Shown: in pieces, positions 2-14,847 of the stretch
Layout: each line of letters begins with the position of its first letter
Position numbering within the stretch: the first letter of the stretch is position 1
NCBI GenBank assembly: GCA_052387235.1
Contig: JBQTJJ010000033.1
Location: 4,052 to 68,051 of the forward strand
Source of the DNA: Actinomycetota bacterium
Lineage (GTDB): Bacteria > Actinomycetota > Acidimicrobiia > Acidimicrobiales > GCA-2861595
Direction: 5' to 3'
DNA length: 64,000 nucleotides
Made by a program: the position numbers and the translations under genes
Notes under the pieces: generated by a model
Database searches by the model: none
The model's input: only the letters and a program-made list of their open reading frames with translations
Told to the model about the DNA's origin: nothing

Positions 2-121
2 AAGACCCTCGACGTCCACGTCAAGCGGCTCCGGGCCAAGCTGGAGCTCGACCCTTCCCAGCCCCGGCGCATCGTCACCATCCGCGGGCTGGGCTACCGC
101 TACGAGCGGCCCGGCCCGTGA
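2..121 (+). CDS. OmpR/PhoB-family response regulator, C-terminal winged-helix fragment (5' end outside window)
   Basis: The frame reads [39 protein letters not shown], a typical end of an OmpR-type wHTH domain. The TGA at 119-121 overlaps the phoU GTG (GTGA). Identity as the Pho regulator is inferred only from the phoU/pst context. Confidence 0.8.
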
Positions 122-861
122 GGGACGCCCACGGGGTCCTCCAACCGTCTGCGACACTTGACGACGTGGTCGAGACCCGGAAGCGCTACCACGAGCAGCT
201 GGCCCGGATGAAGTCCGACACCGTGCGCCTGGCGGCCATGGCCACCGAGCAGATCGCGGCCGGCACCAGGGCCCTGCTCGACGGGGAGCTGTCGGCGGCG
301 GAGCGTGTCGTGGCCGCCGACCGCGACATGGACGACCTCACCCACGAGATCGAGGCCAGCGCCCATCTGGTGCTGGCCCGCCAGAGCCCCCTGGCCAGCG
401 AGCTGCGGGCCGTCATCACCATCCTGCGGGTGATCCACGAGGTGGAGCGCTGCGGCGACCTGATGGTGAACGTGGCCAAGGCCACCCGGCGCCTGTACCC
501 CCGCGGCCTCGATCCCAGGATCCGCGGCCTCATCGACCGCATGGGGACCCAGGCGGTGGACCAGCTGCGCCTCGCCATCACCGCCTTCGAGGCCGAGGAC
601 GTGGAGCAGGCCGCCGCCCTGGTCGACATGGACGACGTGATGGACGACCTGCAGAAGACGTTGTTCCGGGCCATCTTCAGCGCCGGCGCCGCCGACGAGG
701 AGTCGGTGCAGCGGGCGGTGCAGGTGGCCCTGGTGGGGCGGTACTACGAGCGGATCGCCGATCACGCCGTCAACGTGAGCGAGCGGGTCCGCTTCATGGT
801 CACCGGGGCGTGGCCCGGGGACCATGACGAGCCGGAGGAACCGGTGGCGCCGGATCGGTGA
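118..861 (+). CDS. phoU: Phosphate signalling/transport regulator PhoU
   Basis: 247 aa with two PhoU repeats ([12 protein letters not shown]... and [16 protein letters not shown]). GTG start overlaps the upstream regulator's stop. Confidence 0.9.
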
Positions 862-875
862 GCCGGCGGCGCGCC

Positions 876-1772
876 CTACCCGAACCGCCCGGTGATGTAG
901 TCCTCGGTGCGGCGGTCGGCCGGCGCCGTGAAGATCCGCTCGGTGCGGTCGAACTCCACCAGCACACCGGTTCGCTCGGCCCCGTCGGCGCTGACCTCGG
1001 CCGTGAAGAAGGCGGTGCGGTCCGAGACGCGGGCCGCCTGCTGCATGTTGTGGGTGACGATCACGATGGTGTAGTCCCGCTTCAGCTCGATCATGAGCTC
1101 CTCGATCCGGTTGGTGGCGAGGGGGTCGAGGGCGGAGCACGGCTCGTCCATGAGGATGACGTCGGGGCGCACCGCGATGCACCGGGCGATGCAGAGGCGC
1201 TGCTGCTGGCCTCCCGACAGCGAGAACGCGCTCTTGCGGAGCTTGTCCTTGACCTCGTCCCAGAGGGCCGCCTTGCGGAGCGACTCCTCCACCAGGTCGT
1301 CCATGCTCGGCGGCTTGTGGTTGTTGACCTTCGGTCCGAAGGCGACGTTGTCGTAGATCGACTTCGGGAACGGGTTCGGCTTCTGGAACACCATGCCGAT
1401 GCGGCGGCGGACCTCGATGGGGTCGACGTCGTCGCCGTACAGATCCTGCCCGTGGTAGCGGATGCGGCCCTCCACCCTGGTGCCGGGGATCAGCTCGTTC
1501 ATGCGGTTCAGGCAGCGGATGAAGGTGCTCTTGCCGCAACCCGACGGCCCGATGATGGCGGTGATCCGGTTCCCCGCGATGTCCATCCTGATGTCGCGGA
1601 TGGCCAGGAACGGCCCGTAGAAGAACCGGAGGTCCTCGACCGTGAAGACCGGGTCGCCGGTGTGCTCCGGCGTGCCGGGCTCGGCTGCCGGGACCTCGGG
1701 CCGGCGGGTGGGGCCGGGCGGGTCCGCCTGGTCACTCAGCGGCTGGTTCAACGTTGCGGGTGTGTCGGGCAC
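876..1772 (-). CDS. pstB: Phosphate ABC transporter ATP-binding protein PstB
   Basis: Walker [10 protein letters not shown], signature [13 protein letters not shown], Walker B ILMDEP and a PstB-type N-terminus ([11 protein letters not shown]). Confidence 0.95.
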
Positions 1773-1776
1773 AGGG

Positions 1777-2685
1777 TCACCACCGGGTCGTGAATCGGTT
1801 CCTGAGGAAGATGGCGACGGCGTTCATCGCCAGCAGCATGGCCAGCAGGACGATGCCGGCGGCGGCCGCCGCCTCGGCGAAGGCGGCCTGGGGCCGGCCG
1901 GTCCAGTTGAAGATCAGGATGGGCAGCGCCGAGAAGGGGTCCCGGACGTCGTCGGGCGTGTTGAAGATGGCCACCGCCGCCCCGATCACCAGGAGCGGTG
2001 CCGTCTCCCCGATGGCCCGTGACAACGACAGGATCACCCCGGTCATGGTGCCGGGCATGGCGGCCGGGAGCACGTGGTGGCGCACTGCCTGCCACCTTGT
2101 CGCGCCCAGGGCGTAGGCCGCCAGCCGGATGGACTCGGGGACGGCACGCAGCGACTCCCGGGCCGCGATGATGATGAGGGGAAGGCTCATGACCGCAAGG
2201 GTGAGCCCCCCGGCCAGCAGGCTCGGGCCCATCTCGAAGAAGCGCACGAACACGCCGAGCCCGAGGATGCCGTAGACCACCGACGGTACGCCGGCCAGGT
2301 TGGCGATGTTGGCCTCGATCAGGTTGGTGAGGCGGTTGCGCGGCGCGAACTCCTCCAGGTACACCGCGGCGCCGACGCCGACGGGGAAGCTGAAGGCGGC
2401 GGTGAGGCCCATCAGCCAGAGCGTGCCGTGGATGGCGGCCTTGATGCCGGCCCGGGCCGGGAACCGGGAGACGAAGTTCCCGAGGAACGCTCCGGGATCG
2501 GCGATGAGCCGGTCCCATCCCCGGTCGTAGAGGTTGAACAGGAGCAGGCCCAGGGCGACGACGCCGAGGAAGGTGCCCAGGAAGAGGGCCGAGGCGAACG
2601 CGCCGTCGAGGGCCAGCGCCATGGTCCGGCGGCTGGTGCCGCGGCCCAGGCGGGGGACGGGACGAGGGACGGCTGTCGTGGTCAC
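1777..2685 (-). CDS. pstA: Phosphate ABC transporter permease PstA
   Basis: The C-terminal 300 aa of track ORF 1777..3531 is a PstA-type permease (EAA-loop-like [10 protein letters not shown]...). The longer ORF is a shadow extension through pstC. Start is set at the GTG overlapping the pstC stop (GTGA at 2682-2685); an alternative ATG lies at 2622. Confidence 0.88.
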
Positions 2686-3620
2686 TGGTAGGTCTGGCGG
2701 AAGCGGCGGACGAGGCGGATGCTCAGCAGGTTCATGGCCAGGGTGATGACGAACAGTGTCGCCCCCACCGCGAACAGCGACTGGTAGCGGGTGGTCCCGG
2801 ACGCCGCCTCGCCGCTGACGGTCTGGGCGATGAAGGCGGTGAGCGTCTGGATCGACTCGAAGAAGCTGGTCGTGATCCGGGGGGTGTTGCCGGCCGCGAT
2901 GGTGACGGCCATCGTCTCGCCCACTGCCCGCGAGACGCCGAGGATGACCGAGGCCGCGATGCCGGACAGGGCGGCGGGCACCACCACCCGGAGGGCCACG
3001 ACCCGCTTGGTGGCCCCCATGCCGAAGGCGGCCTCCCGGAGCGAGTTCGGGACGGCGCGCATGGCGTCCTCGCTGATCGAGGCGATGACCGGGAGGATCA
3101 TGAGGCCGACGGCGACGGCCCCGGCGGCGGCGTTGAAGATGAACACCCGGTCCTCGCCGAACACCGGACGCAGCAGGGTGGGCGTGACGAAGTTCAGGGC
3201 GAAGAACCCGACCACCACCGTCGGTATCCCGGCCAGCACCTCGAGCACGGGCTTCACCACCGCCCGTACCCGGGGGTGGGCGTACTCCGACAGGTAGATC
3301 GCGGTGGCCAGGCCCAGCGGCAGCCCCACCACCAGCGACCCCAACGCGATCATGAGCGACCCGTTGAGCAGCGGGAGGACGCCGTACTCGCCCCCGTCGG
3401 CGCCGCCCGTGGGCGCCCAACGGGTTCCAGTGAGGAAGTCGACGATGGACTCCTTGGCGAAGAACCGCAGGGCCTCCTCCGCCAGCACGGCCACGATGCC
3501 CACCGTGACCAGGACCGACAGGGCGGCGCACACGAACAGGAGGCCGACGACGATGCGCTCCCCGGGACGGGAACGTCGGCGCTCGATGCCGAGCTCGGGG
3601 GATGGGGCGGAGATCGCCAT
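2682..3620 (-). CDS. pstC: Phosphate ABC transporter permease PstC
   Basis: 312-aa polytopic permease with a PstC-like motif ([20 protein letters not shown]), located between pstS and pstA. Confidence 0.9.
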
Positions 3621-3677: not shown

Positions 3678-4655
3678 TCAGGCGCCGGCCTCCAGCTTGG
3701 CCAGACCCTCCTCGTAGTCCTCGGAGGGCGCCGGCGTGTAGCCGACGTCCTTGATGATGTCGGGGGTCGTCTCGAGGTAGAACTTCACGAACTCCTTCAC
3801 CTCGGGCCGCTCCAGGGACGAGTTCTTGACGTAGATGAACAGCGGCCGGCTGAGCGGGTAGTCGCCGGACTCCACCGTCTCGTCGCTCGGTGCCACGCAG
3901 GTGCCGTCCTCGCCCGACACCTTGATGTCCTTCAGGACGTCCTCGTTCTCGGTGAAGTAGGCGAAACCGAAGTAGCCCCAGGAGTTCTTCTCGCCCTTGA
4001 TCCCCTGCACGAGGGTGTTGTCGTCTTCGGAGGCGGTGTAGTCGGTCCGCGGCTTGAGGCTCTCGGGCTTCTTCGGATCGCCCAGGACCTCCTCCACGAA
4101 GAAGTCGTACGTGCCCGAGTCGGTGCCGGGGGCGAAGATGGCGATCTTCTCCGCCGGGAACTTGGGGTCGACCTGGTTCCACGTCGTGGCGCCGCCCTCT
4201 TTGAAGATGGAGCCCATCTGCTCCACGCTCAGGCACTCGAGGAAGGTGTTCTCGGCCGAGGTCACCACGGCCAGGCCGTCGAGGCCGACGCGAAGCTCCG
4301 AGAACTCGATCCCCTTGGCCGCGCAGGCCTGGGCCTCCTCGTCCTTGATGGGCCGGGAGGCGTTGGAGATGTCGGTCTCGCCGGCGCAGAACTTCTGGAA
4401 CCCGCCTCCGGTGCCGGACGTGCCCACCGGGACCTGCACGCCTGCCTGCACCAGTTGGAACTCCTCGGCGATGGCCTCGGTGATGGGGGCCACGGTCGAC
4501 GACCCGTCGATCACCACCGATCCCGAGAGGCTGCCCCCTCCCCCCCCGGTCCCGGCCGTGCCGGCGTCGTCGTCGCCGCCGCAGGCGCCGAACACCAGCG
4601 CCAGCGCCAGCGACGCCCCCGCCAGGCGCGCCCGCCGTCCACCGAATCCCGTCAT
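3678..4655 (-). CDS. pstS: Phosphate-binding lipoprotein PstS
   Basis: PBP-like domain (GSSTVAPITEAIAEEF, GTSGTGGGFQKF). Lipobox LVFGAC follows a basic N-terminus. Start is set at the internal ATG at 4655, preceded by GGGGGAGG; the track ORF extends to 4709. Confidence 0.9.
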   Translation of the reverse strand: MTGFGGRRARLAGASLALALVFGACGGDDDAGTAGTGGGGGSLSGSVVIDGSSTVAPITEAIAEEFQLVQAGVQVPVGTSGTGGGFQKFCAGETDISNASRPIKDEEAQACAAKGIEFSELRVGLDGLAVVTSAENTFLECLSVEQMGSIFKEGGATTWNQVDPKFPAEKIAIFAPGTDSGTYDFFVEEVLGDPKKPESLKPRTDYTASEDDNTLVQGIKGEKNSWGYFGFAYFTENEDVLKDIKVSGEDGTCVAPSDETVESGDYPLSRPLFIYVKNSSLERPEVKEFVKFYLETTPDIIKDVGYTPAPSEDYEEGLAKLEAGA

Positions 4656-4768
4656 CCGGACCTCCCCCTGTCTCCGACCGCACCCGGCCGGTGGCCTTTC
4701 TGGACGCACCCTGCGCCCCCGCCTACCCGGCGACCACGCTACGAGGGGCTCCTGGCGGCGAGGCCACC

Positions 4769-4857: not shown

Positions 4858-6417
4858 GTGCGGATTGCCGCCCTTGACCTCGGCAGCAACTCGTTCCACC
4901 TCCTCGTGGCCGACACCAAGCCGGACGGCACGTTCACGCCGGTGCTGCGGGAGAAGGAGATGCTGCGCCTCGGCGACGTGGTGGCCCGCACCGGCCGGCT
5001 CACCGACGAGGCGTGCGAGCGGGCGCTGGAGTCGGTGGGCCGGTTCCGGGCCCTGGCCGAGGCGGCCGGCGTCGACCAGATGGTCGCCTGCGCCACGGCC
5101 GCCATCCGGGAGGCCGAGAACGGGGCCGAGCTGGTGTCCCGCTTCTTCACCGAGGCGGGCGTGGCCGTCCGGGTCATCAGCGGGCGGGAGGAGGCGGCCC
5201 TCATCTTCCGGGCCGTGCAGGCCAGCGTCCTCATCGACCCGGGGCCGGCGCTGTGCCTCGACCTCGGCGGCGGCAGCCTCGAGATCGTGGTGGGCGACGC
5301 CCGGGCCCAGGCCTGGGCCACCAGCGTCAAGCTGGGCGTGGGACGCCTGACGGCCGAGCTGGTGCAGAACGACCCCCCGAAGCAGGGCGACCTGCGCCGG
5401 CTCCGGGACCGCATCGTGCCCGTGCTGGGCCAGGTGGCGGTGGAGGTGGCCCCGTTCAGGCCCCGGCTGCTGGTGGGGACCAGTGGCACCTTCTGCGACC
5501 TGGCCCGGATGGCGGCGGTGCAGGAGACGGGCACCGTCCCCATCTCCGTCAACCAGCTCCACGTGGCCGCCGCGGCCCTGGCGGCGGTCCACGAGAAGCT
5601 CGTCTCGATGACCGCGTCGCAACGCCGGAAGCTGCAGGGCCTCGATGCCCGCCGGGCCGAGCTGGCGCCGGCCGGGTCGCTGCTGGCCCTCGTGGCCCTC
5701 GAGCTGTTCGGGTTCGAGGAGCTGGTGGTGGGCGACTGGGCCCTCCGGGAGGGCATGGTGCTCGATGCCATCGGGCACCAGGAGCCGGACCAGGGCGACC
5801 CCCGGGTCATCCGGACGGCGTCGGTGCTCGACCTGTGCGCGCGCTGCGGCTGGCAGGAGGAGCACTCCCGCCAGGTCGCCCGCCTGGCCACGAGGTTGTT
5901 CGATCTCACGGCCGGCCTGCACGAGCTGACCGACAGGCACCGGGAGCTGCTGGAGCACGCCGCCCTGCTGCACGACATCGGCGAGCACGTGTCCAGCGAG
6001 GGCCACGACAAGCACACCGCCTATCTCATCCGGCACGGCCGGCTGCGGGGCTTCTCCCCCCAGGAGGTCCACGTCCTGGCCACGCTGGGCCGCTACCACC
6101 GCCAGGGCGAGCCCAAGGCCTCGTTCGAGTCCTTCGCCGCCGTGGACGAGGACGAGCGCCCGGCCGTCCGGACCCTCACCGCCCTCCTGCAGGTGGCCGA
6201 CGGGCTCGACCGGGCCCACGCCGGCGCGGTGGAGGACCTCGACGTCGAGATCGACGACGAGCGGGTGGGGATCCTGGTCCGGGCGTCCACCGACGCCGAC
6301 CTCGAGCTGTGGGGCGCCCGCCGCAAGCGGGCCCTGTTCGAGCAGGTCACCGGGCGCCGGCTGGACCTGGCGGCGACCCAGCCCGCCGGCGACGCCGAAC
6401 GCCCGCGCAAAGCCTGA
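4858..6417 (+). CDS. ppx: Ppx/GppA-family exopolyphosphatase / pppGpp phosphohydrolase with C-terminal HD domain
   Basis: N-terminus IAALDLGSNSFHLLVAD (ASKHA fold), and an HD-domain motif ALLHDIGEHVS later. 519 aa, GTG start. Confidence 0.9.
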   Translation: MRIAALDLGSNSFHLLVADTKPDGTFTPVLREKEMLRLGDVVARTGRLTDEACERALESVGRFRALAEAAGVDQMVACATAAIREAENGAELVSRFFTEAGVAVRVISGREEAALIFRAVQASVLIDPGPALCLDLGGGSLEIVVGDARAQAWATSVKLGVGRLTAELVQNDPPKQGDLRRLRDRIVPVLGQVAVEVAPFRPRLLVGTSGTFCDLARMAAVQETGTVPISVNQLHVAAAALAAVHEKLVSMTASQRRKLQGLDARRAELAPAGSLLALVALELFGFEELVVGDWALREGMVLDAIGHQEPDQGDPRVIRTASVLDLCARCGWQEEHSRQVARLATRLFDLTAGLHELTDRHRELLEHAALLHDIGEHVSSEGHDKHTAYLIRHGRLRGFSPQEVHVLATLGRYHRQGEPKASFESFAAVDEDERPAVRTLTALLQVADGLDRAHAGAVEDLDVEIDDERVGILVRASTDADLELWGARRKRALFEQVTGRRLDLAATQPAGDAERPRKA

Positions 6418-6506: not shown

Positions 6507-7367
6507 ATGGACTCCGGCGGTGGTGAGGGCGCCAGCGCGGCGGCCCGCGCCGTGGCCGCCGCCTGCCGCGTGCTGGACGCCGAGGAGTGCCTCCCGACCC
6601 TGGCCGAGCTGGGCCGGCGGGTCGGCATGAGCCCGTCGCACCTGCAGCGCAGCTTCAAGCGCCTGCTCGGCATGACGCCCCGCCAGTACGGGGCCGAGGT
6701 GCTCCTGGAGCGGGCCCGGCGGATCCTGCGGACCGGCGCACCCGTCACCGACGCCCTGTTCGAGGCCGGCTACGGCTCCTCCCGGGCGTTCTACGAGGGC
6801 GCCCGGGCCGGGCTCGGCATGACGCCGTCGGCCTACCGCCGCCGCGGCCTGGAGCAGCGCATCACCTACACGGTGGTGGCCTCGGGGCTCGGCGACGTCC
6901 TGGTCGCCACCACGCCCGAGGGGGTGTGCCTCGTGCGCTTCCTCGACGCCCGGGCCCGCGACGTCCTGGCGGCCGAGTTCCCCGCCGCCGCCATCGAGCG
7001 GGACGACGGCGCGCTGGCCGAGGTGGCGGCCCGGGTGGTGGCGGCCGTCGCCGGCGACGACGGGCCCGGCGCCGAGCTCCCCCTCGACGTGCGGGCCACC
7101 GCCTTCCAGCTGCGGGTGTGGCAGGCGCTGCGGGCCATCCCCCGGGGGCAGACCCGCTCCTACGCCGAGGTGGCCGCGACCATCGGGCGACCGACGGCCG
7201 TGCGGGCCGTGGCCGGCGCCTGCGCCGCCAACCCGGTGGCCCTGCTCGTCCCCTGCCACCGGGTGGTGGCGTCGGACGGCAGCCTGGCCGGCTACCGCTG
7301 GGGCACCGGCCGCAAGCGGGCCCTGCTCGAGGCCGAGGGTTGGGCCGGCCCGGGGAGCGCCCCGTAG
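6507..7367 (+). CDS. AraC-type HTH fused to O6-alkylguanine-DNA methyltransferase (Ada/Ogt-like)
   Basis: The AraC HTH (MSPSHLQRSFKRLLGMTPRQY) is followed by an MGMT domain with the PCHRVV active site. The N-terminal Zn-Cys Ada domain is absent. Confidence 0.85.
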   Translation: MDSGGGEGASAAARAVAAACRVLDAEECLPTLAELGRRVGMSPSHLQRSFKRLLGMTPRQYGAEVLLERARRILRTGAPVTDALFEAGYGSSRAFYEGARAGLGMTPSAYRRRGLEQRITYTVVASGLGDVLVATTPEGVCLVRFLDARARDVLAAEFPAAAIERDDGALAEVAARVVAAVAGDDGPGAELPLDVRATAFQLRVWQALRAIPRGQTRSYAEVAATIGRPTAVRAVAGACAANPVALLVPCHRVVASDGSLAGYRWGTGRKRALLEAEGWAGPGSAP

Positions 7368-7507: not shown

Positions 7508-8890
7508 GTGATGGCCTCGTCGACCGACCGCCCGCCCGCCCCGCCGAGCGCGCCCGCCAAGACGGTGGTGCTCGACACCTCGGTGCTGGTGGCCGACCCC
7601 GACGCCCTCCAGCAGTTCGCGGGCTGCGCCCTGAAGGTGCCGCTCACCGTGATCGAGGAGCTGGACGGGCTCAAGGCCCGTCCCGACGGCGTGGGCCGCT
7701 CGGCCCGTGAGGCACTGCGGGGCATCGAGGCCCTGCGGGTGGGTGCCGGCGGGTCGCTGGCCGACCCGGTCACCCTGGGCCACGGCGGGACGCTCGCCAT
7801 CATGGTCAACGGGGTGAACCAGGCCCTGCTGGGGGAGCACTACCTGGACCCCGCCAGTCCCGACAACCGCATCATCGGCGCCGCCCTCGGCCTGGTGCTC
7901 GACGGGATGGAGGTGGAGGTGGTGTCCAACGACGCCGCCCTGCGCATCAAGGCGGCCCACGTGGGCCTGGCCGCCAAGGAGTACGTGCCCATCTCCGCCT
8001 ACGGCCGCGAGCTCGGCTCAGCCGGCTGGCACACCCTGGCCGGCCTCGATGCTGCCCTGATCGACGGCCTGTTCGCCGACCGCGCCGTGGCCGCCGCCGG
8101 CGTGCCCGGGGCCGGGATCGTGCACGAGAACGAGTTCGCCGTGCTCCGCGCCGGCCAGCAGTCGGCCCTCACCAGGCGTAAGGGCGACCAGCTGTGCCTG
8201 CTCCGCCAGGGCCAGGAGGCGTTCGACCTCAAGCCCCGCAACGTGGAGCAGCGCCTGGCCCTCGACCTGCTGCTCGACCCGGACGTGTCGGTGGTGGCCC
8301 TGGACGGCCCGGCCGGCACCGGCAAGACGCTGCTGGCCATCGCGGCCGGGCTGGAGCAGGTCTGGAACCACCCGAGCTCGCGCCGCTACGAGCGCCTCGC
8401 CATCTACCGGCCGGTGGTGGCGGTGGGCCGCCAGGACCTCGGCTACCTGCCCGGCACCCTGGACGAGAAGCTCGATCCGTGGATGGGCGCCATCCACGAC
8501 GCGGTGGTGGCCATGAGCGACGGCCGGCGCAAGAGCGCGGCCGACGAGACCATCGCCCAGATCACGGCCGAGGGCCGGCTGACCATGGAGTCGGTCACCT
8601 ACCTGCGGGGCCGGTCGCTGCACGGCACCTGGGTGCTGCTGGACGAGGCCCAGAACCTCGAGCCCAGCCTGGCCAAGACCGTCCTCACCCGGGCCGCCGA
8701 GGGGACCAAGGTGGTCTTCACGGGCGACACCAGCCAGATCGACGCCCCGTTCCTCTCGGCCGAGACCAACGCCATGTCCGTGCTCACCGCCGCCCTGGGC
8801 GGGGGCCGGGGGGGCGGCCTGTTCGGCCACATCCGCCTCACCCAGGGCGAGCGAAGCCCGGTGGCCACCATGGCGGCCGCGCTGCTGTAG
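7508..8890 (+). CDS. phoH2: PhoH2: PIN-domain RNase fused to PhoH-like ATPase
   Basis: N-terminal PIN domain (VVLDTSVLVADPDAL...). The PhoH domain has Walker A GPAGTGKT and Walker B VLLDEAQN. Confidence 0.85.
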   Translation: MMASSTDRPPAPPSAPAKTVVLDTSVLVADPDALQQFAGCALKVPLTVIEELDGLKARPDGVGRSAREALRGIEALRVGAGGSLADPVTLGHGGTLAIMVNGVNQALLGEHYLDPASPDNRIIGAALGLVLDGMEVEVVSNDAALRIKAAHVGLAAKEYVPISAYGRELGSAGWHTLAGLDAALIDGLFADRAVAAAGVPGAGIVHENEFAVLRAGQQSALTRRKGDQLCLLRQGQEAFDLKPRNVEQRLALDLLLDPDVSVVALDGPAGTGKTLLAIAAGLEQVWNHPSSRRYERLAIYRPVVAVGRQDLGYLPGTLDEKLDPWMGAIHDAVVAMSDGRRKSAADETIAQITAEGRLTMESVTYLRGRSLHGTWVLLDEAQNLEPSLAKTVLTRAAEGTKVVFTGDTSQIDAPFLSAETNAMSVLTAALGGGRGGGLFGHIRLTQGERSPVATMAAALL

Positions 8891-8920: not shown

Positions 8921-9670
8921 TCAGCCCGCGGGCCAGAGGCGGCCCGCCACCTCGGACCACAGGTCGTGGAAGGCCCGGGCGGCGGCGGTGGTGGGGGCGA
9001 AGTGGCCGATGGGCGCCCGCTCCACGCCCATGCGCTCGACGGCGCTGGCGTTCGGGATGGCGGTGGCGAGGAAGGCCGGCCACCGCCCGGCCAGCGCCTC
9101 CAGCAGCTCGCGGTGCAGCCGCTTCCGCCTGTCCACCATGGTGAAGTGGGGGAGCAGGCCGGGGGCGTCGGCGCCCTCGTCGAGGAACCGGGCCAGCTGG
9201 TCGAGGGTGCGGGCCGACAGGGTCGTGGGGATGACCGGCACCAGCAGGTGGCGGGCCGCCCCGAACACGCTCTCGCTGGCGAGGGAGATGCTGGGCGGGC
9301 AGTCGAGGAAGGCGACGTCGTAGCCGCCGGCGAGGGGGTCGAGCAGGCCGGCCAGCCGCTCGGTGGGGCGTTTGGTGGCGTCGAGGTGCAGATCGAGATG
9401 GCGGAGGGAGAAGTCGGCGGGGACGAGGTGGAGCCCGGGCACGTCGGTGGCCCGCACGTGGGCCGCCAGCTCGCCGTGGGAGCCCACCAGCCGCTCGGTG
9501 CCGCCCTTGACCTTGGCCTTTACCCGGAAGTAGTAGCTGGCCGCGCCCTGCGGGTCGAGGTCCCACACCAGGACGCGCGCCCCCGAGCGGGCCGCCTCGA
9601 ACGCCAGGTTCACGGCCGACGTGGTCTTCCCCACGCCACCCTTGATGCTGTAGGTGGCGAGCACCTTCAT
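8921..9670 (-). CDS. Orphan ParA/MinD-family ATPase (deviant Walker A), no HTH and no parB partner
   Basis: The 249-aa tail of track ORF 8921..11515 reads MKVLATYSIKGGVGKTTSAVNLA...VWDLDPQG. The ATG at 9668-9670 overlaps the TGA of the upstream CHAD gene (ATGA). Confidence 0.85.
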   Translation of the reverse strand: MKVLATYSIKGGVGKTTSAVNLAFEAARSGARVLVWDLDPQGAASYYFRVKAKVKGGTERLVGSHGELAAHVRATDVPGLHLVPADFSLRHLDLHLDATKRPTERLAGLLDPLAGGYDVAFLDCPPSISLASESVFGAARHLLVPVIPTTLSARTLDQLARFLDEGADAPGLLPHFTMVDRRKRLHRELLEALAGRWPAFLATAIPNASAVERMGVERAPIGHFAPTTAAARAFHDLWSEVAGRLWPAG

Positions 9671-11202
9671 CCGCGGCCGCCCGCCGACGACAGGAGCTCG
9701 GTGAAGGTGCGCGCCGTCTGCTTGGTGTCGTACGCGCTGAAGCGCTGGGCGAACTCGTCGCGGGCGGACCGGCGGCGCTGCTCGAGGTGCTCGGTGAGCC
9801 GGCCCATGGCCACCAGCGTGTCCGGCCCCACCCCCGGCCTGCCGTGCAGCTCGGCCGCGACGTGCGCCAGCTGGTGCACGTGGACCTCGGCGTCCTGGTG
9901 CTCGCCCAGGTTGTCCTGGAGGGCCTTGAGGCGCTGCACGAAGGCCTTGCGGGGGCCCGGGGCGTAGAGGCTGCCGAAGCACTCGAGGAGGTAGCGCAGC
10001 TTCTTGGCGTCCTTGCGCAGCTCGTGCAGCACCTCGGCCGGGGTCTCGGGGCCGATGGAGCGCCCCCGCTCCAGGAGCTGCGCCTGCGCCTTGGCCGTCC
10101 GGCCGGCGGCGACCCTGCCGATGGCCGGGCCGGTCCCGGCGACCTCGTCCCCGGTCCCGCCTCCCTGCAGCCATCCCTGCCACCCGGTCATGAGCTTGCG
10201 GTAGCGGGCCGACCGCAGCACCTTGGCCAGGGCCACGTGCTCCGCCCGCCGGCGACCCGAGATGTGGGCCAGGACGGGAGCGAGCTGGCTCGACCCCTCC
10301 GGTCCGAGGGGTGCCACGTACCCGCTCCACTCGATCACGTAGACGTCGAGGTCCCGGGCCGGACCGGTTGCGCCCCCCAGCCAGCCGAAGCCGTCGCGAT
10401 AGCTGTCGCGCACGGCCGGCGGCAGCACGCCCTTGCCCTGGGCCAGCACCGACCGGGTGCGGCGCACCGCCACCCGCAGGTCGTGGAGGAACTCGGGGTC
10501 GACGTCGTCCACCGTGCCCTGCCAGTTGGCGTCGACGGTGGCGGCCAGGTTGGCCAGCACCCGCCGGAACGCCTGCAGCGCCGGCTCCCTCCGGTCCAGG
10601 GGGACGGTGGGCGATCCCTTGAAGCCGGTCAGGTCGATGCCGGCCGCCGCCGCGGCGGCGGTGAGGACGCCCGCTCCGTCGGCGAGTCCGAGCGACACGA
10701 GCAGGCTCCGGGCGCCGGCCGCATCCTTCGGGTACCCGGCCAGCTCGCCGACCTGCACCGCCCAGATCGGACCCACCTCGTCGTGGCCCTCCACGGTGAC
10801 CCCGTCGTGGACCTCGACGGCCACCCGGGCCTTGCCGGCACGGTCCCGGCGCACGCCGCGGGTCGCACTGGCGGTGACGGTCATCACCCGCAGGAGGGCC
10901 CGGATGTCGGTGTGGGCCAGGAGGCGGGCGCGGAAGGGGCCGGCCGGCAGGTCGGCGGCGAAGCGGGGCGCGCCGTCGACGCTGAGCCCGACCGGGCTGG
11001 TCCCCTCGGCGTCGAGGACCAGCTGGTGCGACCCGGCCTGCTCCCGAAGCTCCAGGCGCATGCCGGCCCCGGCCAGGCGCCCGTCGAACGTGTCGAGCAC
11101 CGTGCGGCGTACCCGGCGGCTCGGGCCGAGCTCGTAGCCGGCGCCGGCCAGCGCCGACAGCACGCCGGCGGGATCGACGTCGGGTGAGGTGTAGGCGTCC
11201 AT
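9667..11202 (-). CDS. CYTH-like / CHAD domain protein (YgiF-like architecture; CHAD is a polyphosphate-granule binding module)
   Basis: 511 aa. The N-terminal ~200 aa is CYTH-like (VLDTFDGRLAGAGMRLELRE) but has no N-terminal ExExK motif. The C-terminal half has CHAD helices (LHDLRVAVRRTRSVL, LHELRKDAKKLRYLLECF). Confidence 0.85.
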   Translation of the reverse strand: MDAYTSPDVDPAGVLSALAGAGYELGPSRRVRRTVLDTFDGRLAGAGMRLELREQAGSHQLVLDAEGTSPVGLSVDGAPRFAADLPAGPFRARLLAHTDIRALLRVMTVTASATRGVRRDRAGKARVAVEVHDGVTVEGHDEVGPIWAVQVGELAGYPKDAAGARSLLVSLGLADGAGVLTAAAAAAGIDLTGFKGSPTVPLDRREPALQAFRRVLANLAATVDANWQGTVDDVDPEFLHDLRVAVRRTRSVLAQGKGVLPPAVRDSYRDGFGWLGGATGPARDLDVYVIEWSGYVAPLGPEGSSQLAPVLAHISGRRRAEHVALAKVLRSARYRKLMTGWQGWLQGGGTGDEVAGTGPAIGRVAAGRTAKAQAQLLERGRSIGPETPAEVLHELRKDAKKLRYLLECFGSLYAPGPRKAFVQRLKALQDNLGEHQDAEVHVHQLAHVAAELHGRPGVGPDTLVAMGRLTEHLEQRRRSARDEFAQRFSAYDTKQTARTFTELLSSAGGRG

Positions 11203-11264
11203 GGGCGGCGCTCGGTTTCGGCTGCGTCGTGCGCCCGGCCGCCGCCTGGCCCAAGCTTGGCGCC

Positions 11265-11738
11265 ATGGCCGTCGAGATCGAGCGGAAGTTCCTTGTGACC
11301 GCCGTGCCCGGGCCCGAACTGCTCGGTCCCGGCGTGCGGCTGCGGCAAGGGTACCTGGCCGAGGACGGCCCGGTGCAGGTGCGGGTGCGCATCACCGAGG
11401 CGGCGGCGGTGCTGACGGTGAAGGCGGGACGGGGCCTCAGCCGCACGGAGGTGGAGCTGCCCGTCGGGCCGGACGAGGCCGAGTCGTTGTGGGCCCACAC
11501 CGGCGGGCGGCGCATCGAGAAGGTGCGCTTCCACGTGGACGCGGGCGGCCATGCCGTCGAGGTCGACCTCTACGCCGGCGCCCTCGACGGCCTGTGCACG
11601 GCGGAGGTCGAGTTCGCCTCGGTGGAGGAGGCCGAGCGGTTCGTCCCGCCCCCGTGGTTCGGGCCCGAGGTCACCACCGTGGCCGGCTGGGACAACGCCT
11701 CGCTGGCCAGGAGCGGCCGGCCCGAGCCGCTCAGCTGA
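11265..11738 (+). CDS. Stand-alone CYTH (triphosphate tunnel metalloenzyme) protein
   Basis: MAVEIERKFLV carries the canonical ExExK motif. 157 aa. Start is set at the ATG at 11265; the track ORF starts at 11184. Confidence 0.85.
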   Translation: MAVEIERKFLVTAVPGPELLGPGVRLRQGYLAEDGPVQVRVRITEAAAVLTVKAGRGLSRTEVELPVGPDEAESLWAHTGGRRIEKVRFHVDAGGHAVEVDLYAGALDGLCTAEVEFASVEEAERFVPPPWFGPEVTTVAGWDNASLARSGRPEPLS

Positions 11739-12147
11739 GGCGCTCCTCGAACACGTCGAGCACCTGGCGGTCGCGCGGGTAGGAGAGCAGCTCCCGGGCC
11801 TGCCCCACCGCCAGCCAGCGGATCTCGTCCACCTCGGGCCCCGGCTCGAAGCCCCCTCCGAGCGGGCGCATGGCCCAGTACCGGGCCACCTTGGCCCGCT
11901 GCCGGCGGTCGGCGTATGCCACCTCGGTGAGGTACGGGCCCAGCTCGCAGCGCAGCCCGGTCTCCTCGGCCACCTCCCGCAGGGCGCAGTCCTCGTCGCT
12001 CTCACCGGGGTCGGCCTTCCCCTTGGGCAGCGTCCAGTCGTCGTACCGGGGCCGGTGGACCAGGAGCACCTCGCGGCCGCCGCCACTCGCCCGCCACACC
12101 CCGCCGCCGGCGGCGCGGACGAGCTCGCCCCGGCCCGGCCCCGTCAC
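11731..12147 (-). CDS. Nudix hydrolase (MutT1-like Nudix half)
   Basis: Nudix box GKADPGESDEDCALREVAEETG. GTG start overlaps the stop of the upstream histidine phosphatase (GTGA at 12144-12147). Track ORF 11731..12615 is an over-extension. Confidence 0.85.
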   Translation of the reverse strand: MTGPGRGELVRAAGGGVWRASGGGREVLLVHRPRYDDWTLPKGKADPGESDEDCALREVAEETGLRCELGPYLTEVAYADRRQRAKVARYWAMRPLGGGFEPGPEVDEIRWLAVGQARELLSYPRDRQVLDVFEERLS

Positions 12148-12605
12148 TCCGGCGGCGTCAGGTAGCGGCCCACGATCCTCGACGTGGCGTCGCGCTCGAG
12201 CACCCACACCGACCCCTTCTGGCACCGGTCGTCGCCGAGGCGGGCGCCGTTCCCGTCGAGGTGGGCCAGCAGGTCGGCGATCACGTCGCCATGGGTGCAC
12301 AGGACGGTGTGGCCGGGATGGCCGAGCAGCGAGTGCACGAGGGCGGCGGCCTGCTCGCCCGCGCCCTCGGCCAGCGCCTCCGACGCCCCCACGGCGAGGC
12401 CCAGGGCGGCGGCGGCCGGCGCCAGCGTGTCGACGCAGCGCACGGTGGGGCTCGAGACGAACCGCGTGACCGGGAACCCGGAGAGGACCCCGACCAGCCC
12501 GTCGGCCTGGCGCCGGCCCCGCTCGTTCAAGGGCCGGGCCGGATCCTCGCCGGCCCACGCGCTCCGGGGCAGGGCGACGGCATGGCGGACGACGAGGACG
12601 GGCAC
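12144..12605 (-). CDS. SixA-like histidine phosphatase (MutT1-like C-terminal half encoded separately)
   Basis: N-terminus VLVVRHAVA (RHG/A catalytic motif), with a conserved THGD later. 153 aa. Confidence 0.8.
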   Translation of the reverse strand: MPVLVVRHAVALPRSAWAGEDPARPLNERGRRQADGLVGVLSGFPVTRFVSSPTVRCVDTLAPAAAALGLAVGASEALAEGAGEQAAALVHSLLGHPGHTVLCTHGDVIADLLAHLDGNGARLGDDRCQKGSVWVLERDATSRIVGRYLTPPE

Positions 12606-12687
12606 GAGGGTGCATTGTGCCCCTCCCGCCGGCCGTCTCCGAATCCGGCCGGGGCGCGGCCGCCCGGCGCAGTCCGGAGGTCCGCGA

Positions 12688-14847
12688 CTACAGCGAGCTC
12701 TCCGACGCGTCGGCGGCCAGGTCCTCGGCCTCCCGCCGCCGGCGCACCCGCTCCTCGGCCAGCTGCTGGAGCCGCACGTGCGACGACAGCCCCTCGGTGG
12801 TGGCCACCTTGGACCAGGACCCGTCGGACGCCAGCTGCCAGGCCAGGACGTCGTCGGCCAGCTCCACGTCCAGGATCTCCCGCAGCCGGTCCTGCAGGTC
12901 CGGGGCCTCCACCGGCACCAGGACCTCGATGCGCTTGTCCAGGTTGCGGGCCATCATGTCGGCCGAGCCGATGAGGTACCGGACCGGGCCGTGGGCGGGG
13001 TCGCCGAAGGCGAAGATCCTCGAGTGCTCCAGGTAGCGCCCGACGATGGAGCGGACCCGGATGTTCTCCGACAGCTCGGGCACGCCGGGCCGCAGGCCGC
13101 ACATGCTGCGCACGATCAGGTCGACCGACGTCCCGGCCGCCGAGGCCAGGTAGAGGGCGTCGATGACGGCCTTGTCGACCAGGCTGTTGACCTTCATCAC
13201 GATGCGCCCGGGCCTGGGCCCCGAGCACTCCCGCTCGATCAGCTCCACGATGCGGGCCCGCAGGTGGGTCGGCGCGAGGAGGACCTTGCGGTACCGCTGC
13301 TGGCGGCTGTAGCCGGTGAGGAAGTTGAACAGGTCGGTGAGGTCGGCGCCCAGGTCGGCGTCGGCCGACAGCAACCCGATGTCCTCGTAGATCCGGGCCG
13401 TCTTCGGGTTGTAGTTGCCCGTGCCCACGTGGCAGTAGCGACGGATGCCGTCCTCCTCCTGGCGAACGACGAGCGCCGTCTTGCTGTGGGTCTTGAAGCC
13501 GACCAGGCCGTACACGACGTGGACGCCCGCCTCCTCCAGGGCCCGGGCCCAGGCGATGTTGGCCTGCTCGTCGAAGCGGGCCTTCAGCTCCACCAGGGCC
13601 GAGACCTGCTTGCCCCGCTCGGCCGCCCGGATGAGCGACTTCACGATCGGGCTGTCGCCCGACGTGCGGTAGAGCGTCTGCTTGATGGCCAACACCTTCG
13701 GGTCGGAGGCGGCCTGGCGGATGAACGCCTCCACGGTGGTCTTGAACGACTCGTAGGGGTGGTGGACGAGGATGTCCCGCTCCCGCAGCGCCGCGAACAC
13801 GTCGGCCCGGTCGTTGTCGTCCGCCGCCAGCTCCGGGGGCGTCACCGGATGCCAGGGCTCGTCCTTGAGATCGGCGCGGTCCAGCTCGTGCAGGGCCCAC
13901 AGGCCACCGAGGTCGAGCGGCCCCTGCACCTCGAACACGTCGTTGGGCTCGACCTCCAGCTCCCGCTCGAGCAGCTGGCGGGCCTCGGACGACATGCCGG
14001 CATCGACCTCCACCCGCACGGCCTGCCCGAAGCGGCGCCGGCGCAGCTCCATCTCCACCGCCGCCAGCAGGTCGTCCGCCTCCTCGTCCTCCTCCAGGGT
14101 GAGGTCGGTGTTGCGGGTGACCCGGAACGGGTACTGGCACTCGATCTCCATGCCCGGGAAGAGGGCGTCGAGGTGGGCCGCGATCACCTGCTCGAGGGGC
14201 ACGAACCGCTCGCCATCCGGGAGGAACACGAAGCGGGGCAGGAGCGGTGGGACCTTCACACGCGCGAAGCGGCGCTCGCCCGTCACCGGGTCCCGGACGA
14301 TCACGGCCAGGTTGAGCGAGAGGTTGGAGATGTAGGGGAAGGGGTGGCCGGGGTCGACCGCCAGCGGCGTGAGCACCGGGAACACGTCGTCGAACACCCG
14401 CTGCAGCTGCTTGCGGTCATCGTCGCCGAGGGTGGCGAGGTCGCACATACGGATGCCGGCCGCGGCCAGGGCCGGCACCACGCGCTCCAGGAAGACGCCG
14501 GACTGGCGGTCGACGAGGGTGGCGATGCGCTGGCGGATGGCGTCGAGCTGCTGCGCCGGCGTGAGCCCGTCGGCCGTCGCCGACGACATCCCGGCCGCCA
14601 CCTGGTCCTTGAGCCCGGCCACCCGCACCTGGAAGAACTCGTCGAGGTTGGTGGAGAAGATGGCCAGGAACTTGGCCCGCTCGAGCAGGGGGAGGGACTC
14701 GTCCTCGGACAGGGCCAGCACCCGTTCCTGGAAATCGAGGAGGGACAGCTCCCGGTTGATGTAGGGCGGCAGCTCGCCGGCGGCGGCCGGCGGCGGGGTC
14801 GGGGCAGGCTCCTCGATGAGCTCTTCCAGCTGCCGTGCCATCCCCAA
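12688..14847 (-). CDS. ppk: Polyphosphate kinase 1
   Basis: 719 aa with a PPK1 N-terminus (YINRELSLLDFQERVL...FLAIFSTNLDEFFQVRVAGL) and PLD-like C-terminal domains. The track start at 14847 is TTG; the ATG at 14841 (MARQLEEL) is equally likely. Confidence 0.95.
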   Translation of the reverse strand: MGMARQLEELIEEPAPTPPPAAAGELPPYINRELSLLDFQERVLALSEDESLPLLERAKFLAIFSTNLDEFFQVRVAGLKDQVAAGMSSATADGLTPAQQLDAIRQRIATLVDRQSGVFLERVVPALAAAGIRMCDLATLGDDDRKQLQRVFDDVFPVLTPLAVDPGHPFPYISNLSLNLAVIVRDPVTGERRFARVKVPPLLPRFVFLPDGERFVPLEQVIAAHLDALFPGMEIECQYPFRVTRNTDLTLEEDEEADDLLAAVEMELRRRRFGQAVRVEVDAGMSSEARQLLERELEVEPNDVFEVQGPLDLGGLWALHELDRADLKDEPWHPVTPPELAADDNDRADVFAALRERDILVHHPYESFKTTVEAFIRQAASDPKVLAIKQTLYRTSGDSPIVKSLIRAAERGKQVSALVELKARFDEQANIAWARALEEAGVHVVYGLVGFKTHSKTALVVRQEEDGIRRYCHVGTGNYNPKTARIYEDIGLLSADADLGADLTDLFNFLTGYSRQQRYRKVLLAPTHLRARIVELIERECSGPRPGRIVMKVNSLVDKAVIDALYLASAAGTSVDLIVRSMCGLRPGVPELSENIRVRSIVGRYLEHSRIFAFGDPAHGPVRYLIGSADMMARNLDKRIEVLVPVEAPDLQDRLREILDVELADDVLAWQLASDGSWSKVATTEGLSSHVRLQQLAEERVRRRREAEDLAADASESSL

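Follow-up and report, generated by a model that had tools for sequence, protein, structure and literature searches.

In the McdA-McdB system, a small Soj-like ParA gene lies beside the gene for a cargo partner, and the pair does without parB and parS; an ATPase on the nucleoid and a stimulator bound to the cargo, the carboxysome, bring about self-organized spacing. We describe here a gene pair of similar layout, found in a 64,000-nucleotide stretch of an Actinomycetota genome (contig JBQTJJ010000033.1; the whole stretch is termed the window below). It encodes a 249-residue ParA-like ATPase and, directly upstream, a 511-residue protein with a TTM-like N-terminal part and a CHAD domain. Comparative analysis indicates that adjacency and domain fusion couple the Soj-like clade of this ParA to TTM/CYTH and CHAD domains in at least six phyla, without ParB or parS. 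The pair is a strong candidate for machinery that positions polyphosphate (polyP) granules. The logic proposed for it would be that of McdAB, but the parts differ. The window ParA is not an orthologue of McdA, its match to a solved McdA reaching only E = 6e-10, over the N-terminal half; McdB is small and disordered or coiled-coil, whereas the partner here is a folded protein of 511 residues; and the carboxysome has a protein shell, whereas the presumed cargo here is a granule of inorganic polymer. ParA/MinD positioning systems are already known, and what would be new in this case is the type of partner (TTM/CHAD) and the presumed cargo.

PolyP granules occur almost universally, and several bacteria space them evenly or hand them on faithfully to their progeny. 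According to a review of 2025 and a study of 2026, no mechanism of granule positioning has been defined except for AlgP in Pseudomonas, and whether it depends on energy is an open question. The histone-H1-like AlgP of P. aeruginosa and the polyhydroxybutyrate (PHB) granule tethers PhaM, PhaF and PhaH address the same problem, the spacing of storage granules along the nucleoid. They are passive DNA-binding tethers without known energy input, whereas the module described here has an ATPase. A ParA-like model was raised for Caulobacter by Henry and Crosson (2013), and a 2024 review of ParA/MinD ATPases does not mention polyP. The initial annotation of the window held that no dedicated ParA for polyP granules was known. 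Indeed, none is named in the literature covered, and ParA, phosin/CHAD and polyP were found together only in drawings of an Acidithiobacillus gene cluster (Iyer and Aravind 2002 and Tumlirsch and Jendrossek 2017 were not covered). In that conserved cluster, folD-ppk-parA-(CYTH-CHAD), parA lies between ppk and the CYTH-CHAD gene; the papers label it a chromosome/plasmid partition protein and propose no role (PMC6416229, PMC10892726). The adjacency itself had already been drawn, uninterpreted.

Domain make-up of the two proteins

The downstream protein, whose N-terminus reads MKVLATYSIKGGVGKTT, is a Soj-like ParA with all of the motifs of the ATP sandwich dimer. Its deviant Walker A motif, SIKGGVGKTT, contains the signature Lys as initially annotated, and Pfam likewise bears out the lack of a helix-turn-helix (HTH): no such domain was found by it, and the only families matched were P-loop families of the ParA/MinD type (AAA_31, 3.6e-29; CbiA, 3.5e-15). 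Across the ParA clade defined below, little or no variation is seen at K10, G11, G12, V13, G14, K15 and T16, and none at D37, D39 and D123 of the Walker A' and Walker B motifs. An AlphaFold2 model of the protein (predicted local distance difference test score, pLDDT, 89.7) has Soj/ParA structures as its top matches, including DNA-bound H. pylori Soj (template-modeling (TM) scores of 0.86-0.90). The scores against Soj, ParA, McdA and MinD structures span 0.77-0.90, and BcsQ and FlhG/FleN are also among the good matches. By sequence, the best match among solved structures is the Soj of T. thermophilus (E = 1e-18); for Soj, the TM scores are 0.87-0.90.

The Arg of the Soj DxR motif is required for non-specific DNA binding by B. 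subtilis Soj. In the clade, the invariant Arg182, which lies in the very basic conserved stretch MVDRRKxLHR, is aligned with this Arg. The window ParA shares the deviant Walker A motif and, by alignment, the DxR Arg with the Soj/ParA-Spo0J/ParB-parS system, and Soj is its best match in both sequence and structure. Nevertheless, it is only ~30% identical to Soj-type ParAs and belongs to a separate clade, with neither ParB nor parS and with a CHAD protein as its conserved partner. A C-terminal amphipathic helix of the MinD type was not found in the protein; the helix at residues 229-245 is the last one and belongs to the core fold, and only four residues come after it. NCBIfam had no family at cut-off for the ParA, for the CHAD protein or for a small CYTH protein that is encoded nearby. 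A role in anti-phage defense was considered and set aside: the PADLOC defense models gave no relevant match, with only a local P-loop match for the ParA (PDC-M28B, 33 bits, residues 4-39) and none for the CHAD and CYTH proteins.

Sequence comparison and modeling together indicate that the upstream protein is a YgiF-like TTM-CHAD protein with a degenerate tunnel domain. The Pfam CHAD model matches residues 215-445 (2.2e-59; 201.6 bits vs. a cut-off of 25.6), and the N-terminal ~200 residues have no match in Pfam or NCBIfam. That this latter part is CYTH-like, as had been proposed when the gene was initially annotated, is corroborated by other means. With hhalign, an alignment of the N-domains of ParA-linked CHAD proteins matched the bona fide CYTH domains that are fused to ParAs (probability 91%, E = 1e-6, 165 columns). 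An AlphaFold2 model of the 511-residue protein, built with 50 homologues, had a pLDDT of 92.4 and a predicted TM score (pTM) of 0.88. In Foldseek, the whole chain retrieved E. coli YgiF (5A60); the N-terminal part, predicted to be beta-rich, retrieved the TTM structures 7NS8, 2GFG and 3SY3; and the C-terminal part retrieved the complex of Chlorobium tepidum CHAD with polyP (6QVA; TM score 0.90, 34% identity). Other CHAD proteins localize to polyP granules and bind polyP in vitro (PMC6537752). In the CHAD domain of the present family, R243, R247, R248, R250, K397, K400 and R403 are invariant, and an invariant His is also present.

The EXEXK motif is found neither in the N-domain of the window protein nor in those of most ParA-linked CHAD proteins. 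Because this catalytic strand is missing, the tunnel domain is probably catalytically inactive. The domain itself is kept in every ParA-linked CHAD protein examined, and EXEXK is kept in the small CYTH protein (MAVEIERKF), in the CYTH domains fused to ParAs and in the locus L014. The two-domain architecture and the fold are common to the window protein, YgiF (5A60) and other TTM-CHAD proteins. No downstream ParA gene has been reported for YgiF or for Streptomyces PptA (phosins being PptA and PptB), whereas the subfamily in the window is defined by one.

Linkage of the ParA clade to CHAD genes

The initial annotation provoked two questions: do such ParAs form a clade of their own, and are they enriched beside CHAD genes? 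Both can be answered in the affirmative. An exhaustive search without a profile, run over 1.84 billion cluster representatives, yielded 425 clusters at E <= 1e-30; identity to the window ParA is 38-69% among the 150 best of these. Loci were then drawn from two scans, each a sample and not a census: a genome scan (one genome per species), queried with an alignment of clade sequences, and a metagenome scan, queried with an alignment of TTM-like/CHAD proteins. Among the loci listed in the genome scan, 17 ParAs were 42-67% identical to the window protein and 63 were at or below 36%, with nothing between. A hidden Markov model (HMM) of the clade separated the same groups: members scored at least 301 bits, the 63 other ParAs scored at most 176, and the window ParA scored 363. 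Neighbor-joining placed the clade members in one monophyletic group with a long stem. Linkage to CHAD is found throughout this group, down to its base, a distribution that suggests that the two genes were linked ancestrally and that the link was secondarily lost in places.

At 10 of the 17 clade loci, the gene directly upstream of the ParA gene is a CHAD gene; among the 63 controls, no CHAD gene occurs within 8 kb (among the loci listed; Fisher p = 1.2e-8). The linked loci of the genome sample belong to Ilumatobacteraceae, Microthrixaceae, other Actinomycetota, Rhodothalassium salexigens, Rhodospirillaceae and three Desulfobacterota lineages; overall, the pair occurs in Acidimicrobiia, Alpha- and Gammaproteobacteria, Desulfobacterota, Planctomycetota and Acidobacteriota. 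Approached from the CHAD side, the metagenome scan gave at least 80 loci, of which 77 had enough downstream sequence to be informative. In 68 of the 77 listed, a clade ParA follows directly on the same strand. The junctions are tight across related pairs, with a 4-nt overlap in 31 of 77 and either an overlap or a gap of at most 20 nt in 61. The window is of this kind: on the coding strand, the ParA ATG occupies 9670-9668 and the CHAD TGA 9669-9667, so that the ATGA overlap described earlier is confirmed at its coordinates. In three close homologues, the CHAD gene again precedes the ParA gene with a 4-nt overlap, and the neighbors differ (PhoX, a response regulator, a histidine kinase).

When neighboring genes at 14 linked loci were clustered, CHAD and ParA were the only conserved genes; no third conserved partner emerged. 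We conclude from these comparisons that the pairing is not due to chance. The two genes appear to be inherited and expressed as a tightly coupled unit in at least six phyla, often together with a further CYTH domain that looks active and is either part of the ParA or encoded next to it. As a side observation, at least 18 of the top-120 ParA and top-120 CHAD homologues share a longest-contig size (e.g., 11605, 40808, 124333, 30667), an indirect sign that the two lie on the same contigs throughout Acidimicrobiales.

Some clade loci depart from the usual arrangement. In a metagenome-assembled genome (MAG) of Methylophaga (L015, 5884-8750), ppk1 lies directly upstream of the clade ParA gene and overlaps it, and no CHAD gene occurs within 8 kb; it looks as though, in this variant, the ParA were tied to the polyP synthase itself. 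On plasmid pMAQU02 of Marinobacter nauticus VT8 (L176, 5001-5747), a ParA at the border of the clade (290 bits, 40% identity) is encoded on its own, flanked by genes for pyruvate kinase and an ABC substrate-binding protein, a few kb from phbB, a gene of PHB synthesis. This ParA may serve a different cargo.

Domain fusions tie the ParA independently to (poly)phosphate-binding domains. Many clade members, from Planctomycetota and other phyla, are ~500-550 residues long and consist of a ParA with a C-terminal CYTH domain that retains EXEXK; in Acidobacteriota (Vicinamibacterales), a shorter ParA carries a degenerate half-CYTH extension; and in P0388 a TTM-like domain is fused to the N-terminus of the ParA. 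ParA-CYTH fusions are also encoded directly behind CHAD genes, in the orders ppx - CHAD - ParA-CYTH - His_Phos ... ppk1 and CHAD - ParA-CYTH, and the half-CYTH form occurs in the order Nudix - CHAD - ParA+half-CYTH. At L085, ppk1 is near the pair and a ppx gene precedes it. A single metagenomic protein from a low-GC organism (P0181, 561 residues) has the clade ParA fused to S6PP/HAD (sucrose-6F-phosphate phosphohydrolase) and not to CYTH.

Accessory genes recur as well. In the cultured species Paracoccus aestuarii (DSM 19484) and P. marcusii, an annotated operon comprises a ribbon-helix-helix (RHH)-like gene, CHAD, an "AAA family ATPase", CYTH and NUDIX, and its CYTH is of the same type as the divergent small CYTH of the window. 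At 17 loci, and at no control locus, an orthologue of this small CYTH adjoins the CHAD-ParA pair; Nudix genes flank the pair in Paracoccus and Vicinamibacterales too. The small CYTH at 17 loci and the Paracoccus operon together imply that the recurrent set (TTM-like/CHAD, ParA, small CYTH, Nudix) is complete in the window and is merely arranged differently. We also considered whether the small CYTH of the window is a "split" form of the fused CYTH. This idea was rejected, as an HMM of the ParA-fused CYTH domains had no match in the retrieved loci, and the fused domain is by this measure of a different subfamily. The RHH-like gene is confined to Paracoccus. Its 62-residue product, encoded on plasmids (L171, 4299-4487; L177, 3288-3476), has a Lys-rich N-terminal tail (MPKSK...VNTSLRLHRKTLKALKTRAIEDD...); the gene heads the operon, overlaps the CHAD start and resembles ParG/omega-type partners or an operon repressor.

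Two proteins in which Pfam finds both CHAD and ParA (P0354, P0414) looked like direct CHAD-ParA fusions. Their linkers, however, are rich in Arg, Pro and Gly and out of frame, and a split N-domain precedes them; we regard both proteins as frameshift artifacts of noisy assemblies that count only as instances of adjacency. Comparable frameshifts, which split the TTM-like/CHAD gene and join its end to the ParA gene, were seen at L084 (6600-9653), L087 (7345-9644), L005 and L020; in this way, frameshifted metagenome and MAG contigs of the long-read style put false "CHAD-ParA fusion" proteins into public collections. An AlgP-like protein is not part of the module in the window, but AlgP-like Lys-rich tails do occur elsewhere in the family. 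The C-terminal 100 residues of a clade ParA from Cobetia sp. (P0133, WP_347421318.1) are Lys/Ala/Pro repeats of the KPAAKPASK type, like the histone-H1-like tail of AlgP, and the ParA-linked CHAD protein of Rhodothalassium salexigens also ends in a Lys-rich tail (L007, ~7800-8001). Both tails could be extra appendages for binding DNA or polyP.

A candidate role in polyphosphate-granule positioning

What might such a pair do? A functional link of the ParA clade to TTM/CYTH and CHAD domains, both of them established binders of triphosphate and polyP, is well supported by the sequence comparisons above. By analogy with McdAB, we consider it somewhat probable that the two-gene module spaces or partitions polyP granules, the CHAD protein being the mark on the granule and the ParA acting on the nucleoid. 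The distinct clade, the two-sided adjacency, the fusions, the Soj-like ATPase motifs and the predicted CHAD fold all point in this direction. In the mechanism that we envisage, the TTM/CHAD protein would sit on the granule surface, and the ParA, as a dimer with bound ATP, would occupy a polyanionic matrix, of which the nucleoid is the likeliest. On contact with the ParA, the partner on the granule would stimulate its ATPase; a local zone of ParA depletion would follow, and granules would be moved apart, as carboxysomes are by McdA-McdB. The number, spacing and inheritance of granules would presumably be controlled in this manner, under phosphate-regulated expression.

The widespread CHAD-ParA cassette is a concrete positioning candidate that is genetically testable in cultured Paracoccus marcusii, P. 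aestuarii and Rhodothalassium salexigens, and probably in Acidithiobacillus. If the proposal is true, ParA/MinD biology would gain a class of cargo (an inorganic polymer condensate) and a type of partner (TTM/CHAD). A function would be at hand for those "orphan" ParAs that annotation routinely mistakes for chromosome partitioning or BcsQ proteins, and phosins would acquire their first mechanistic role.

Several observations weigh against this proposal. The second DNA-binding Arg of Soj has no counterpart in its alignment with the clade ParA, and no conserved basic N-terminal ParA-stimulating peptide of the ParB/McdB kind was found in the CHAD partner. The recurrence of CYTH and Nudix beside the pair may indicate an enzymatic rather than a spatial role. 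About a third of the clade ParAs in the genome sample (6 of 17) have no adjoining CHAD gene; these six include Acidobacteria Mor1, Bacteroidota, Steroidobacteraceae, a gammaproteobacterial MAG and one ParA at a contig edge. Likewise, no CHAD gene was found beside the clade ParAs of Pontibacter and Marinobacter VT8 or beside the plasmid/chromid copies of Halomonas. Finally, phosin deletion in several species reportedly did not much disturb granule formation, and in S. elongatus the spacing of polyP is reported not to depend on the one ParA-family ATPase of that species. In view of these two reports, any such ParA-CHAD system is not universal.

The company that the pair keeps also suits an ATPase that regulates or assembles polyP metabolism instead of moving granules. 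It recurs with enzymes (CYTH with intact EXEXK, Nudix, His_Phos, ppx, ppk1) and not with structural proteins, and in Methylophaga it is ppk1 that overlaps the ParA gene. With an ATP-dependent dimer switch, the protein could gate where, when or how many granules nucleate, or the access of Ppk1, Ppx, TTM or Nudix proteins to polyP; it would then resemble FlhG/FleN, BcsQ or MipZ, which determine how many copies of a structure form or where, but do not transport it. BcsQ and FlhG/FleN are indeed among its good structural matches, and the negative search for a McdB/ParB-like stimulating peptide would be in keeping with this reading. We nonetheless judge this explanation unlikely: the nearest relatives in both sequence and structure are Soj-type ParAs, down to the position of the DNA-binding Arg, and only CHAD, a granule-surface binder, is universally kept with the ParA, whereas no enzyme is so kept. 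A further possibility concerns the matrix. An unusually basic stretch, MVDRRKRLHR, is invariant in the clade, and a basic loop, FRVKAKVKGG, is conserved, and one can imagine that polyP itself, in place of DNA, is what the ATP-bound ParA binds, while the TTM/CHAD protein (and, in the fusions, CYTH) anchors and cycles it on granules. The ParA would then coat granules or form patterns on them, and the TTM/CHAD protein would be its resident ATPase activator or recruiter. Fusion to a CYTH domain that binds triphosphate or polyP ends would keep the ATPase on polyP permanently, and the AlgP/histone-H1-like tails of the Cobetia ParA and the Rhodothalassium partner would accord with such an arrangement. 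It would be the first ParA-type system on a matrix that is neither nucleic acid nor membrane, and the first energy-consuming organizer of the polyP granule. Yet the Soj-like fold and the conserved DxR Arg are equally expected for DNA binding, and polyP binding is already supplied by CHAD; we think it quite improbable.

That the ParA simply partitions a chromosome or plasmid and has come to lie next to a CHAD gene by chance is hardly credible, even though public records call it a "chromosome partitioning protein" or "ParA family protein". Some clade members do reside on plasmids or chromids (one at the end of its record), and a small RHH-like gene heads the operon in Paracoccus. This gene occurs in Paracoccus only, however, and there the operon is located ~46 kb inside a replicon of 296 kb for which typing gives a replicon cluster of its own. 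No match to the parS consensus was found in the 64-kb window at up to three mismatches, nor does the window contain a parB, in agreement with the initial annotation; related loci conserve only CHAD and ParA. The window ParA scores 83.6 bits with the NCBIfam model ParA_partition, far under its cut-off of 180. Above all, chance proximity is contradicted by the conservation of the CHAD-ParA adjacency across phyla (68/77; 10/17 vs. 0/63).

Gene neighborhood in the window

The G+C content of the window is 74.7%, and the closest relatives of its proteins, among the matches listed from public records, are from Acidimicrobiales. Spurious open reading frames (ORFs) dominate at this composition, so it was necessary to filter by G+C content at third codon positions (GC3) to pick the real genes from a list full of long antisense and out-of-frame ORFs (window positions 1-26000, both strands). 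An example of the spurious kind is an 864-residue "ORF" at 8921-11515, in which the ParA frame runs on through the CHAD gene. The features that were retained are collected below.

Features of the window that bear on the ParA-CHAD pair and its setting
Feature	Coordinates	Strand	Basis
ParA-like deviant-Walker-A ATPase, 249 aa	8921..9670	-	Translation; Pfam AAA_31/CbiA; clade HMM; AlphaFold2
Deviant Walker A motif SIKGGVGKTT, residues 8-17 (signature Lys10, catalytic Lys15)	9620..9649	-	Translation
ATGA stop/start overlap of CHAD and ParA genes (translational coupling)	9667..9670	-	ORF coordinates
TTM-like/CHAD protein, 511 aa, YgiF-like architecture	9667..11202	-	Pfam, AlphaFold2, Foldseek
CHAD domain, ~residues 208-508, predicted polyP-binding module	9679..10581	-	Foldseek, invariant basic residues
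Degenerate TTM/CYTH-like N-domain, ~residues 1-190, without EXEXK	10633..11202	-	hhalign, AlphaFold2 and Foldseek
Small canonical CYTH/TTM gene, 158 aa (MAVEIERKF), divergent; recurrent accessory	11262..11738	+	Pfam CYTH
Nudix domain, occasional accessory	11755..12099 (ORF 11731-12615, true start uncertain)	-	Pfam NUDIX, 5.5e-21
ppk1 (polyphosphate kinase 1), context	12688..14847	-	All four PP_kinase Pfam domains
ppx/gppA exopolyphosphatase, context	4858..6417	+	Pfam Ppx-GppA
phoU	118-861		Pfam
pstB	876-1772		Pfam
pstC	2682-3620		Pfam
pstS	3678-4709		Pfam
PIN-PhoH (PhoH2)	7508-8890	+	Pfam
Ada-like fusion: AraC-type HTH and methylguanine-DNA methyltransferase DNA-binding domain	6507-7367	+	Pfam

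The phosphate and polyP setting of the pair had been recognized from the start, and Pfam identifies its members as pstS, pstC, pstB, phoU, ppx/gppA, PhoH2, CYTH, Nudix and ppk1. One detail found no support: the part of the Nudix ORF that had been called SixA-like has no His_Phos match. No second ParA or CHAD gene is present in the window. The ParA gene is the last of its operon and stops 30 bp short of the convergent PIN-PhoH gene, which leaves the operon without space for a third gene. The Ada-like and PIN-PhoH genes are located between ppx and the ParA gene; in other loci, no tie of either to the module was seen.

In the first 165 codons of the Nudix ORF, no domain was found, and they resemble non-coding or out-of-frame high-GC sequence; the annotated start is therefore probably too far upstream. 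The best match of this ORF is mycobacterial MutT1 (NF052459, E = 4e-39, below the cut-off), and it adjoins ppk1. In mycobacteria, too, mutT1 and ppk1 are neighbors. A ppk-pptA-nudix operon is documented in Streptomyces, and the polyP gene neighborhood of the window is similar to it.

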